Shown one piece after another: positions 40,845 to 44,454 of a DNA stretch of 64,000 nucleotides. The position numbers were made by a program, and so were the translations under genes. The notes below the pieces were generated by a model. It was not told the origin of the DNA. It made no database searches and worked only from the letters and a program-made list of their open reading frames with translations. Origin of the DNA: Gammaproteobacteria bacterium (GTDB lineage: Bacteria > Pseudomonadota > Gammaproteobacteria > UBA4575); the NCBI GenBank assembly GCA_965203475.1, contig OZ241890.1:2089423-2153422 (forward strand), read 5' to 3'. Within the stretch, counting starts at the first letter, position 1, and each line of letters opens with the position of its first letter.

Positions 40845-41387
40845 TTAGCCACCACAAATCTGAGTGATCTGATCGGTAGTAAATCCTTTATCAATATAAA
40901 ATGTGACATCCTCTTTACTACAAGAGTTTGCAGCGGCCGTTGAAGCAGGTTGATTTTTTTGATAATCAATTCCACCTTGATCTTCTGCTTTTTTAAGCGA
41001 GATCATAGCCTCTTTCAAAGCATCCACTTCACTTTGTAAAGCATCAATTTTTTGTTTTTCTTTATCCTTGGCTTCTTGTCGTTCACGGGCACCGCGATGA
41101 CCACCAGCTTTATGCTCATTTAAAAAATACTCAGAGTTGAGTAATTTAGGATTAGTAACTCTTTTATATTGTTCTGCAGGAGAATAGGCTTCCCCTTCTC
41201 GTTTCACTGTACTGTTGATATCGACCGGAGATTTTTTCTCTTTTTCAGCTTCTATTTCTTCAACATCCGCCTCCGCAATGAGTTGGTCTTCATCACCATC
41301 CCCGAAAAAAGGCATGGAAGAACAACTAGCGAATAAAACTAGACTTAAAATTGAAGCTGTATATGTTATGAAATTTCGATTAGTCAT
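40845..41387 (-). CDS. hypothetical lipoprotein with acidic and coiled-coil regions
   Basis: 180 aa. Lipobox LFASCSS. EAEKEKK / KQKIDALQSEVDALKEAMISLKK heptad-like stretch. Cys-containing C-terminus. Confidence 0.45.
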   Translation of the reverse strand: MTNRNFITYTASILSLVLFASCSSMPFFGDGDEDQLIAEADVEEIEAEKEKKSPVDINSTVKREGEAYSPAEQYKRVTNPKLLNSEYFLNEHKAGGHRGARERQEAKDKEKQKIDALQSEVDALKEAMISLKKAEDQGGIDYQKNQPASTAAANSCSKEDVTFYIDKGFTTDQITQICGG

Positions 41388-41518: not shown

Positions 41519-43327
41519 TTAGAAGGCCCAGACGAATTCCATGGCTAAACGCACAGCTTCTTCGTCTTCTTCTTGACCGGCATAAGCTTCAATCAGTTCT
41601 TCAACCCCATCACCGGGGAAGAACACAGAAGCCTGAGTTTTAACCGTTGTATTTGGAGTTAAACCCCAGTCCAACTGGTTGGACCACTCCCAGCCAATTT
41701 CTTCTTCATCAACTTCTACATAACCAGTCGCAGATACACCACCAACACCAGGCGTAAATCCAGCTACAGATGAGTTACGAGCTACATAAAAGTCTTCGTT
41801 CCATCGCATATAGCGGAGACGTGATTTGAATTTTACATGTGGCTTGAGTTGCATGGTTGCAACCGCAGAAATTTCAGCATAACCGGGATTATCACCACGG
41901 CCAGCACCACCTGAGAAGCCGCCGTCAAAGTTGGCAATACCACCTACTTTAACCGGGGTACCATTACCTAATCCTTCTGGCAAGTGAGAGAATACTGGAA
42001 GACCTAGCATGAAGTTGCCATCCCCTACAAAGGTGTTTTCACCACCCCAGGAGGAGAAGCGTTGGTCACACATGACACAGATGAAGCCTTCCAAGTCATC
42101 ATCGTCACCATCATCATCACCTGAGGTGTAAATACCATCAAGGCGAAGATTGAGCTTGTCGGTAACTTGAAGTGCTGCATAGGCAGAGAATGCATAAGCA
42201 TTAACATCAAACGAATCATCCACTGCTGTTACACCATCAACAAAGTTAACAAGTGTTGCACCATTGTTAATGTCAGCTTCACCAGTATTGTAGTAAGCGC
42301 CTAAATGGGTACTTAAATTGCCCCATGAGGCATTCCAGTAGGCACCAAAGTGATGCACATCAAAGTCTGATTTTTCTACAAAGCCAGAAGCGGCAATATT
42401 GTTATTTAAGAATGCATTTAGATCTGCAACGACTTCGTTCGCAGACTTATCATAGGCATACATCAAACGTAAATTACCATTGCCCAGTGCAAGATCAGCA
42501 AAGCCCATAACTGCTTCACGGTCATCATTGTCTGTAGCGCCACAAGCAAGACCTGCTCCAGCGGTTTGACCTCCGCCAAAGCCACCAAAGTCACCGGCAC
42601 ATTCACCAGCGGCTGCTTGGAATGCATTTTCACCGGGACGGGACAACTTGTTTCGTTCATTGAATACATGGTAGCCAATGTTAAACCACATTTTATCGTT
42701 GGGTTTACCCACTAGCCATAAGGCTGCGGTGTCATCACCAAACATTAAGGCCGCACCACCGACAGTGTCCACATCCACAAATTCAAAACCAGCATGTAAG
42801 CGTAAGGTGTCAGTAAGCAGCATAGAACCATTCAAACGTTCGATACCGAAGTCACTGGTTCCTGCACCTACTTTACCGCCAGAGTCACCTGAAGCTACAT
42901 CCAGCAAGTTGTCATAAGCGGCATGTGCGTGAAAACTGGCTCGACCATCATTGGATAACCAGTTGAAGAACATATTGAACTCATTACGAATATAGTCACC
43001 GCCTAACAAGCCGCCTTCCGCAAAGTGAATACGGCCCCAGTCAGCACCAATGTTATCATCTGGAACTGTACGGGCACCACCTTGATCGACGATCGCCTCT
43101 CTCAGGCCAAAGTCCCAGTCATGCTCATAGGTAGGGATGAAGCGGTTGACCATACCTAAACTAAATTGTCCGGTTGCATTACGTATGACAAAGCTGCCTG
43201 GCCCTAATAAGCCACCACAACAGCCATATCCACCATCTTTCAGAATGTCATATTCTTTTGCGAATACACCACTGGATAGTGAAAGCGCGCAAACAGCCAG
43301 GACAAATCCTAGTAGTTTACTTTTCAT
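41519..43327 (-). CDS. large outer-membrane beta-barrel protein with Gly/Asp-rich acidic loops (putative porin/channel)
   Basis: 602 aa. Signal peptide. Alternating amphipathic strands. C-terminal EFVWAF aromatic terminus. Loops such as GDDDGDDDD and GGFGGGQTAGAG. Confidence 0.6.
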   Translation of the reverse strand: MKSKLLGFVLAVCALSLSSGVFAKEYDILKDGGYGCCGGLLGPGSFVIRNATGQFSLGMVNRFIPTYEHDWDFGLREAIVDQGGARTVPDDNIGADWGRIHFAEGGLLGGDYIRNEFNMFFNWLSNDGRASFHAHAAYDNLLDVASGDSGGKVGAGTSDFGIERLNGSMLLTDTLRLHAGFEFVDVDTVGGAALMFGDDTAALWLVGKPNDKMWFNIGYHVFNERNKLSRPGENAFQAAAGECAGDFGGFGGGQTAGAGLACGATDNDDREAVMGFADLALGNGNLRLMYAYDKSANEVVADLNAFLNNNIAASGFVEKSDFDVHHFGAYWNASWGNLSTHLGAYYNTGEADINNGATLVNFVDGVTAVDDSFDVNAYAFSAYAALQVTDKLNLRLDGIYTSGDDDGDDDDLEGFICVMCDQRFSSWGGENTFVGDGNFMLGLPVFSHLPEGLGNGTPVKVGGIANFDGGFSGGAGRGDNPGYAEISAVATMQLKPHVKFKSRLRYMRWNEDFYVARNSSVAGFTPGVGGVSATGYVEVDEEEIGWEWSNQLDWGLTPNTTVKTQASVFFPGDGVEELIEAYAGQEEDEEAVRLAMEFVWAF

Positions 43328-43517
43328 TGAAGATACTCCTCTTCATATTTGTTATAAGAAAAAAGAAAAATACTCGAGTAATTTTCCTAACGAAGATGAC
43401 TCAAACATTAGTCAGGCTTTCGGTGTAAACCTTAAGCGCTTCCCTCCCTCTGTAAGATTCATCTCGACTTGAAAAGAAAAAATCAGCATCCCTGCTAACT
43501 TTTCCATTTCAAGATAA

Positions 43518-43726
43518 ATACAACAAGCGTTGTATTTGTGCGACAGATTGCCCTGTCAGTGGTATCAAGTCAAGCAAATATTGTTGTTATTATACAACTA
43601 CCATCAACATTGATAAGTTGTTGTATTAATTAATTAAATCCTTTTGCGACTCAATAATGTTTGATAGCAAAAGTTTATCTAGAAGGGTAACTATCCAGTG
43701 AGTATTGTTGTATTTATACAACATTA
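43518..43726. promoter_or_regulatory. three copies of a GTTGTAT/ATACAAC palindromic operator-like motif upstream of the OMP gene
   Basis: 43518 ATACAACaagcGTTGTAT. 43583 GTTGTtATtATACAAC. 43707 GTTGTATttATACAAC. All lie within 400 bp of the start at 43327. Confidence 0.45.
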
Positions 43727-43954
43727 GGCGATAAATTTTTTTAAATCATTGATTTTTATGAATAAACTTTAATTAGCGAGTGCATCAATTGCTTGAAAAA
43801 CATCCCCACGCTGAAGGTAGGTAGTTATAAACCATTACCTAAATATTGAGCAAAACGAACTTTGTCGGATGTCTAATTGACTTGATACCTCTGTGATCAG
43901 CGGATTTGATTAAAATAATGCATGCTAGACAAAAGCATATGCACAGTTAGTTTC

Positions 43955-44023
43955 ATGACCGTAAATTTATTACTCGCACTTTTTGTCCTGATCGCCGGGG
44001 CAGCAATCTTAATTTGGAATTGA
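43955..44023 (+). CDS. possible 22-aa hydrophobic micro-protein (MTVNLLLALFVLIAGAAILIWN)
   Basis: ATG...TGA read directly from the sequence. Single TM-like helix. No convincing SD. Convergent with the 44050..44454 gene. Confidence 0.25.
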   Translation: MTVNLLLALFVLIAGAAILIWN

Positions 44024-44049
44024 GCATTAACTCGATTTTTGAATAAGGT

Positions 44050-44454
44050 TTAATGGGGTCGTCGAGTTAATTTTTCGATGGGCGTAAAGGTTAAGTGAGT
44101 CTCATCTTGATAAGGCCGAATAAAATCAAGTGCTATGATAATTTCTCCGTCTTGTTCAATAGCTTTTAGCTGTTTCAAATCTGGCAAGGCGGTCGCGATA
44201 TAGGCACAGCTTGCTGCTGCCAACGTATCTTCCTCATTCATTATAGCTGAGACTAAATTAGCAGCTACAAATTCGATTCTTTGTTCTTTGGTTGGATTAG
44301 CTAGAAATTGATTGTTTAACGTAATTCCCTGGTCTAGTTTATCATTCATTAAATCGAGAGATTCACCTTGTTTTTTAGATAGTATTTTATTTCTATCGTA
44401 TTCCAAGATAGCAGAGCCATTCAATGAAACCGTTAACAAATCTTTACTCAACAT
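44050..44454 (-). CDS. hypothetical acidic cytoplasmic protein
   Basis: 134 aa. No signal peptide. 25-nt gap downstream of the 577-aa gene, so likely co-transcribed. Confidence 0.5.
   Translation of the reverse strand: MLSKDLLTVSLNGSAILEYDRNKILSKKQGESLDLMNDKLDQGITLNNQFLANPTKEQRIEFVAANLVSAIMNEEDTLAAASCAYIATALPDLKQLKAIEQDGEIIIALDFIRPYQDETHLTFTPIEKLTRRPH

Follow-up and report, generated by a model that had tools for sequence, protein, structure and literature searches.

Palindromes upstream of the porin gene

What purpose do the repeated GTTGTAT/ATACAAC palindromes in front of a 602-aa outer-membrane protein gene serve? A reading of the sequence alone had taken them as operators that a dimeric regulator binds cooperatively. 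They lie within the 64-kb window (the whole stretch of DNA that was analysed), in the gap upstream of the porin gene (43328-44049, 722 bp, 34% GC), and the elements needed for the argument are the following.

41519-43327, minus strand: gene of the 602-aa outer-membrane beta-barrel protein, with a signal peptide and the C-terminus ...VWAF
43518-43535: the everted palindrome P1, ATACAAC-aagc-GTTGTAT, 7/7 perfect
43583-43598, no strand: the proximal palindrome P2 (element O2), GTTGTTA-tt-ATACAAC, centred at about -52 from the predicted start
43620-43626, plus strand: an isolated GTTGTAT half-site, present only in the window and in its closest relative, L001
43707-43722, no strand: the distal palindrome P3 (element O3), GTTGTATTTATACAAC = GTTGTAT-tt-ATACAAC, centred at about -176 from the predicted start
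43956-44024, plus strand: a divergent 22-codon hydrophobic ORF, MTVNLLLALFVLIAGAAILIWN*, which shares the intergenic region with the porin gene

All three palindromes are present as described and lie well beyond chance: exact GTTGTAT-N0-6-ATACAAC matched once against 0.00 expected in the 64-kb window, GTTGYN6RCAAC matched three times in 64 kb against 0.25 expected, with two of the three matches in the porin promoter region, and 6 of the window's 20 GTTGTAT heptamers are packed into the 205 bp of the palindrome region. Their description as near-perfect 7-bp repeats holds for P1 and P3 (7/7 each) and is generous for P2, in which heptamer pairing reaches just 5/7 and which can alternatively be written as a clean GTTGT-N6-ACAAC. 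The arms of P1 extend to 9 bp by direct reading of the sequence (43516-43537, AAATACAAC/GTTGTATTT), and P3 is a perfect 7-2-7 element, the arms of which can be extended to 11 nt at 91%. The half-site at 43620-43626 is probably non-functional. The third GTTGYN6RCAAC match (41848-41863, GTTGCATGGTTGCAAC) falls within the porin coding sequence, where the protein stretch is unconserved among orthologues, and is probably due to chance. The gap had also been called a 720-bp leader; the predicted 5' UTR takes up only about 211 nt of it, and the remainder consists of the promoter, the two upstream palindromes and the divergent 22-codon ORF.

Related loci and the comparison set

Among 5.8 billion proteins, only seven are close relatives of the 602-aa protein (69-80% identity), and all seven come from metagenomes or metagenome-assembled genomes. 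The contigs of these relatives are loci L001-L006; a leader-hairpin scan of metagenome contigs with TACTCGAGTANTTTTCTTT added L008, L017, L021, L025, L034, L037 and L043 together with two partial loci, and homologues of the neighbouring 134-aa protein gene led to L046, which has two promoter copies, and to L047. The comparison comprised 16 promoter copies in total, and counts for O2 and O3 are given over 15. Scans of genome contigs with the porin, either as a single sequence or as an alignment, found no relative, and blastn of the promoter and leader against plasmids and phages gave no match. The pyruvate dehydrogenase E1 of the source organism shares 78-84% identity with many marine assemblies and about 68% with Candidatus Thiodiazotropha; the source organism is an uncultured marine gammaproteobacterium. 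The palindromes are real and are conserved before the main outer-membrane channel gene of this uncultured marine sulfur bacterium.

The everted palindrome and the leader RNA

The transcript predicted to start at 43537-43539 would begin with P1 and continue through four further conserved hairpins to the start codon of the porin gene.

43328-43539, minus strand: predicted structured 5' leader of about 211 nt, hairpins HP1 to HP5
43516-43537, minus strand: HP1, AAAUACAAC-GCUU-GUUGUAUUU, a 9-bp stem-loop at a distance of 0-2 nt from the predicted 5' end
43468-43513, minus strand: HP2, a long hairpin of 20 bp with a conserved apical GGA loop (GCAGGGAUGC), which starts 2 nt after HP1
43365-43386, minus strand: HP4, GAAAAUUACUCGAGUAUUUUUC, nearly invariant, the query pattern that retrieved the related leaders
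43328-43345, minus strand: HP5, UGAAGAGGAGUAUCUUCA, whose loop presents the Shine-Dalgarno GGAG right before the ATG and whose stem is invariant in 12 leaders

The whole leader has a minimum free energy of -63.4 kcal/mol (z -4.6), and the RNAalifold consensus contains 7 compensatory pairs in 6 sequences. HP1 (dG -7.8 kcal/mol, z -5.1) appears in the minimum-free-energy fold of 11/12 leaders, and 99% of its cells are paired across 15 sequences, while its loop of 3-4 nt is variable in sequence (GCTT, TTT, GTTT, GCCT, TTTT, GTGA). Covariation in HP1 alone is thin, as its sole compensatory change is one double change, in copy B of L046, and 39 of 500 shuffles equal this; moreover, a symmetric DNA site would likewise retain both arms of P1, which counts against HP1 as an RNA element. 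HP2 is of a different kind: 15 of its 18 pairs show compensatory double changes, and neither any of 500 shuffles nor any slid control reached its covariation score, in an alignment that was fitted to the covariance model R1. This model was required because MAFFT misplaces HP2 between the two leader subtypes. In addition, HP2 folds independently in 8 distinct sequences (z -3.3 to -7.2). The reading of HP1 as RNA is strengthened because the strongly covarying HP2 directly follows it, and the sequence comparison makes it most likely that P1 opens a long, folded mRNA leader as its first hairpin and is not a separate operator.

The model of the sequence-only reading differs at this point, as it would have all three palindromes, the everted one included, act as operators bound cooperatively by one dimeric regulator, with no role for RNA. 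The same heptamers do occur in all three palindromes, all three are conserved in relatives, and the arms of P1 are nearly invariant, as would be the case for a protein contact surface. However, the everted P1 has a spacer of 3 or 4 bp, a geometry unlike the fixed 7-2-7 of the other sites, and dimers tolerate changes in spacer length poorly. The variants in the arms also speak for RNA: in L047 (ATGCAAC/GTTGTAT) an A-U pair has become a G.U pair, so that the symmetry of the DNA is lost and pairing is kept in the sense transcript only, and in L046 copy B an A-U pair is replaced by G-C through changes in both arms together, outside the heptamer. Since P1 furthermore adjoins an RNA helix with strong covariation, we regard the purely operator-based model as unlikely, and favour P1 as the first leader hairpin.

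An intrinsic terminator was also considered for HP1 and was rejected, since the stem contains 2 G-C pairs, L008 lacks the U-run, and the terminator scan did not call this hairpin. With Rfam 15, the window gave 0 matches at gathering score, and the region 43300-43760 gave only chance-level matches (E ~7-9). The leader of about 211 nt, with its covariation support, may be an addition to RNA family libraries.

Three parts of the leader resemble CsrA/RsmA sites, namely the apical loop of HP2, GCA(A/G)GGAUGC, the Shine-Dalgarno loop GGAGUA and the invariant single-stranded GAGGGAGGGAAGC. RGGA is found in the HP2 loop of 12/12 leaders, and the loop of HP5 is GGAGUA. The likeness to CsrA/RsmA regulation of the glgC type, a GGA in the HP2 loop (GCAAGGAUGC) and a second GGA at the Shine-Dalgarno loop, is one of motif resemblance only, and it differs from the SELEX consensus RUACARGGAUGU (PMC7652899) in that the ACA is replaced by GCA or GUA here. 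By this analogy, the GGA motifs in the two loops suggest an additional CsrA-type control of translation.

Core promoter and predicted start

43568-43573, minus strand: -35 box TTGACT, invariant in 16 promoters
43545-43550, minus strand: -10-like hexamer CAATCT, a weak hexamer inside the invariant GGCAATCTGTCG

TTGACT and CAATCT are separated by 17 nt, a spacer that is conserved in length and freely variable in sequence. CAATCT is weak as a -10 element, yet A at position 2 and T at position 6 are kept. With the copies in register without gaps from -75 to +30, the conserved blocks are GTTG..aaa..ACAAC, TTGACT, and GGCAATCTGTCG.ACAAATACAAC followed by GTTGTAT, and between -75 and +12 conservation in the 16 copies is limited to GTTG/ACAAC, TTGACT and GGCAATCTGTCG.ACAAATACAAC. 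Because both hexamers are invariant at a fixed spacing of 17 nt whereas the spacer sequence varies, we read them as the -35 and -10 elements of a putative sigma-70-type promoter, which would place the transcription start at 43537-43539 on the minus strand and give a leader of about 211 nt.

A sigma-54 promoter (GG...GC in GGCAATCTGTCGCA) with an enhancer-binding protein on the upstream palindromes would be another way to arrange these elements. The consensus of such promoters is TGGCAC-N5-TTGCA, to which the invariant GGCAATCTGTCGCA is similar, and sigma-54 promoters typically have palindromic activator sites 50-200 bp upstream. But the distance from GG to GC in AGGCAATCTGTCGCA is 9 nt in most copies instead of the strict 10, the start would land inside HP1, and the invariant TTGACT exactly 17 nt from CAATCT would be left unexplained, so we consider sigma-54 very improbable here and retain the sigma-70-type promoter. 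An RpoE-type promoter was rejected on the spacing, which is 19 nt and not 16, and a TATAAT-containing promoter-like site inside P2 was rejected as it is unconserved in relatives.

Between the 134-aa protein gene and the porin promoter lies a terminator-like hairpin with a T-run (43805-43821, minus strand, CCTACCTTCAGCGTGGG GATGTTTTTC), which was seen only in the window and in L001.

Operator-like elements at the promoter

Whether the motif is conserved upstream of orthologues was a point on which the sequence-only reading had hung, and it is retained: O2 is found in 15/15 promoter copies, exactly 9 nt upstream of TTGACT in each, and O3, as GTTG-N7-ACAAC, in 12/15 promoters at -160 to -207. O2 has an invariant ACAAC and, in 13/15 copies, GTTG, with C or T at position 5 and variable inner bases; the copies of O3 have unrelated flanks, and the probability of a chance match is at most 0.003 per locus (shuffled 258-nt segments). 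In 172 kb of clade DNA, GTTGY-N6-ACAAC occurs 33 times at these promoters versus 3 times elsewhere, and in 221 kb of unrelated loci it occurs once. As RNA, O2 and O3 would form stems of merely 4-5 bp, and therefore a function at the level of DNA fits better; since GTTG and ACAAC are kept while the inner bases and the flanks vary, the comparison supports O2 and O3 as candidate sites of a symmetric, probably dimeric, DNA-binding protein. The proposal of operators for a dimeric regulator thus stands for P2 and P3 and probably not for the everted P1, which is better explained as an RNA stem-loop.

This pattern of conservation also bears on the idea that the upstream palindromes have no specific function and are what remains after the hairpin region was duplicated locally in AT-rich DNA. 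Over 29 nt, P2 and P3 of the window are 79% identical, and the intergenic DNA has a GC content of 34%; neutral remnants would decay, however, and here GTTG/ACAAC are kept in many lineages despite diverging flanks and inner bases, with the register of O2 fixed in 15/15 copies. The idea is already disfavoured, and we give it hardly any credence. Least credible is an invertible promoter switch, with recombination sites that let the promoter face either the porin gene or the divergent small ORF. A perfect 13-nt inverted repeat (43514-43526/43705-43717) does bracket 178 bp with the promoter, P3 has a hix-like 11-2-11 layout, and the locus shows porin replacement as well as a duplicated cassette beside IS remnants; but a single orientation is found in 16/16 promoter copies, the 13-nt repeat is unconserved in relatives beyond GTTG/CAAC, and Pfam scans found no recombinase in the neighbouring genes.

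Besides the candidate protein sites O2 and O3, a cryptic third site overlaps P1.

43529-43544, minus strand: O1, GTCGCAC-AA-ATACAAC, spanning about -6 to +10 relative to the predicted start

The upstream arm of P1 is the right half of O1, and the downstream arm is its complement. In the form GTCGYAC-AA-ATACAAC, O1 is nearly invariant in 15 promoters and fits GT(T/C)GY-N6-ACAAC, its left half being off consensus with GTCG instead of GTTG. Its single frequent variable position is C/T at position 5, the same as in O2 and O3. We infer that O1 is bound by protein, and O1, rather than the everted palindrome, is the likelier third operator candidate.

The distance between O1 and O2 is constant at 54 bp, about five helical turns. 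The spacing of O2 and O3 is 108, 124, 133, 138 or 155 bp, which corresponds to 10.3-14.8 turns with mixed fractions and no helical phasing, and because of this variation looping and the cooperative binding that had been deduced from the number of copies are both unsupported. The position of O2, at about -52.5, is not a classical activator position.

Search for a regulator

The regulator was said not to be encoded nearby, and this is consistent with Pfam scans, which detected no recognised DNA-binding domain in the window's genes at 19.5-64 kb, the STAND NTPase neighbours included, while several small uncharacterised proteins remain there. One gene deserves separate mention.

44050-44454, minus strand: gene of a 134-aa protein, immediately upstream, with 36 homologues that occur in this clade only and always beside the cassette

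The AlphaFold model of the 134-aa protein (pLDDT 87) had no fold match in the PDB at E < 0.7 and contains no helix-turn-helix, and these data neither support nor exclude a regulatory role. The literature held nothing relevant for the heptamers or for motifs of the type GTTG-N8-CAAC, and no matching operator was found in it. Among the 64-kb window and the 172 kb of clade DNA, no second target or regulon was detected for GTTGY-N6-ACAAC; as a defined and conserved 16-bp element, it is a handle for finding the regulator and for scanning genomes for its regulon.

Comparison with known systems

Copies of one symmetric element, three in number here, occur at the promoter as in lac O1/O2/O3, gal OE/OI and deo O1/O2/OE, with one candidate site across the predicted start and others about 50 and 160-210 bp upstream. 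Compared with the primary operators of these systems, O1 spans about -6 to +10, its left half is off consensus and the start is predicted only; unlike in these systems, the distal spacing is not helically phased and looping is unsupported. Like GTTGY-N6-ACAAC, the deo operator TGTTAGAA.TTCTAACA is a palindrome of 16 bp; it starts with TGTT and ends with AACA.

The 16-bp geometry, 5-6-5 (or 7-2-7) with one helical turn between contacts, is also that of CRP/FNR and NarL sites. Half-sites are TGTGA and TTGAT in the CRP/FNR family and TACYYMT for NarL-type regulators, and CRP/FNR sites are centred at -41.5, -61.5 and so on. A CRP/FNR or NarL site was rejected, as the half-site GTTGY differs and a centre at about -52.5 fits neither a class I nor a class II position. 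The LexA box and sites of NtcA, Zur/Fur, NarL, 434-type repressors, OhrR and HutC were likewise rejected for a mismatch in spacing or half-site.

For the leader, the closest parallel is the ompA-type 5' stem-loop. That 5' secondary structure, including the ompA 5' UTR, stabilises mRNA against RppH/RNase E is established, the effect having been demonstrated first for the ompA leader, according to PMC3997798, which cites Emory, Bouvet and Belasco 1992 and Arnold et al. 1998 for this stem-loop. The likeness consists in the mRNA of an outer-membrane protein, a long 5' UTR and a conserved stem-loop that lies within 0-2 nt of the predicted 5' end; the difference is that there is no sequence similarity and that the 5' arm here coincides with a putative operator half-site. 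Operators together with a 5' hairpin are familiar in kind (lac, gal or deo plus ompA), and the more unusual aspects are the conserved leader and the porin swap.

Proposed organisation of the cassette

On the observed sequence, its conservation, the covariation of HP2 and the fixed geometry, we consider it slightly more probable than the opposite that the locus carries a conserved promoter-plus-leader cassette, in which operator copies surround a sigma-70-type promoter that is joined to a 5' hairpin leader. In such a cassette, a dimeric protein, presumably of the helix-turn-helix type, would bind the copies of GTTGY-N6-ACAAC. RNA polymerase would be hindered by O1 across the start site, with O2 (54 bp from O1) and O3 in an auxiliary role. 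At the 5' end of the mRNA, the first 22-24 nt would fold into HP1, the 9-bp stem-loop, which by ompA-type analogy may protect this end against RppH and RNase E, and the GGA loops of HP2 and of the Shine-Dalgarno region may add CsrA-type translational control. An operator half-site that doubles as a hairpin arm would explain why both arms of P1 are nearly invariant whereas HP2 drifts.

A bolder version of the cassette would make it an undescribed clade-specific porin module, in which ATACAAC serves both as operator half-site and as mRNA hairpin arm and couples transcription control with mRNA protection, possibly with one factor reading both, and in which the five-hairpin leader is a new cis-regulatory RNA family and a fixed 'socket' for swapped, unrelated porins. 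We hold this version to be rather doubtful.

Porin replacement and gene content of the locus

Porins set what enters Gram-negative cells and are common phage receptors; we know of nothing on porin control in uncultured marine sulfur-oxidising Gammaproteobacteria. The 602-aa protein itself has no Pfam match, and its relatives carry PF13372 (Alginate_exp). Across the clade, the gene order is STAND NTPase, 134-aa protein, small ORF, cassette, outer-membrane protein gene and later phosphoglycerate mutase, and the same cassette precedes non-homologous porins, which are 602-aa alginate-export-like in the subgroup of the window and Porin_4-type proteins of 435-458 aa in other loci. The Porin_4-type genes in the same slot are the following.

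L008:4002-5360: Porin_4-type gene
L017:2078-3427: Porin_4-type gene
L047:6118-7434: Porin_4-type gene

The N-terminal MK(S/T)KLLG is common to both types of outer-membrane protein. As non-homologous porins stand behind one cassette, control belongs to the locus and not to the 602-aa channel; the tight control that had been proposed for this channel is not specific to it, as the same cassette stands before Porin_4-type porins at the same locus in relatives. That promoter and leader are kept while the porin gene is replaced suggests that expression is controlled at the level of the locus, and this bears on the diversification of surface proteins.

In the subgroup of the window, extra genes lie between the porin gene and that of phosphoglycerate mutase, of which p203 and p226 are found in all members, and SoxA-like, metallophosphatase and cytochrome c peroxidase genes in the window and in L001 and L003. 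A gene after the porin gene (40845-41387, minus strand) encodes a 180-aa low-complexity lipoprotein and is conserved downstream of the 602-aa type, a short part of the protein being conserved also in some Porin_4-type loci; this lipoprotein may be a partner of the porin. A single 1.2-Mb contig carries the whole cassette twice in tandem (L046:4352-4620 and L046:7148-7411), the copies being separated by IS1595-like remnants.

The divergent 22-codon ORF is present with conservative substitutions in 10/10 loci that have enough upstream DNA; it has no match in NCBIfam and probably encodes a small membrane protein that lacks an annotation. On the plus strand, about 65 nt before this ORF, the 17 nt at 43877-43893 (TTGACTTGATACC(T)CTG) are a repeat, on the opposite strand, of the porin -35 box and the initial bases of its spacer. 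This element is only partly conserved in relatives and may serve the divergent small ORF as a twin -35 box.
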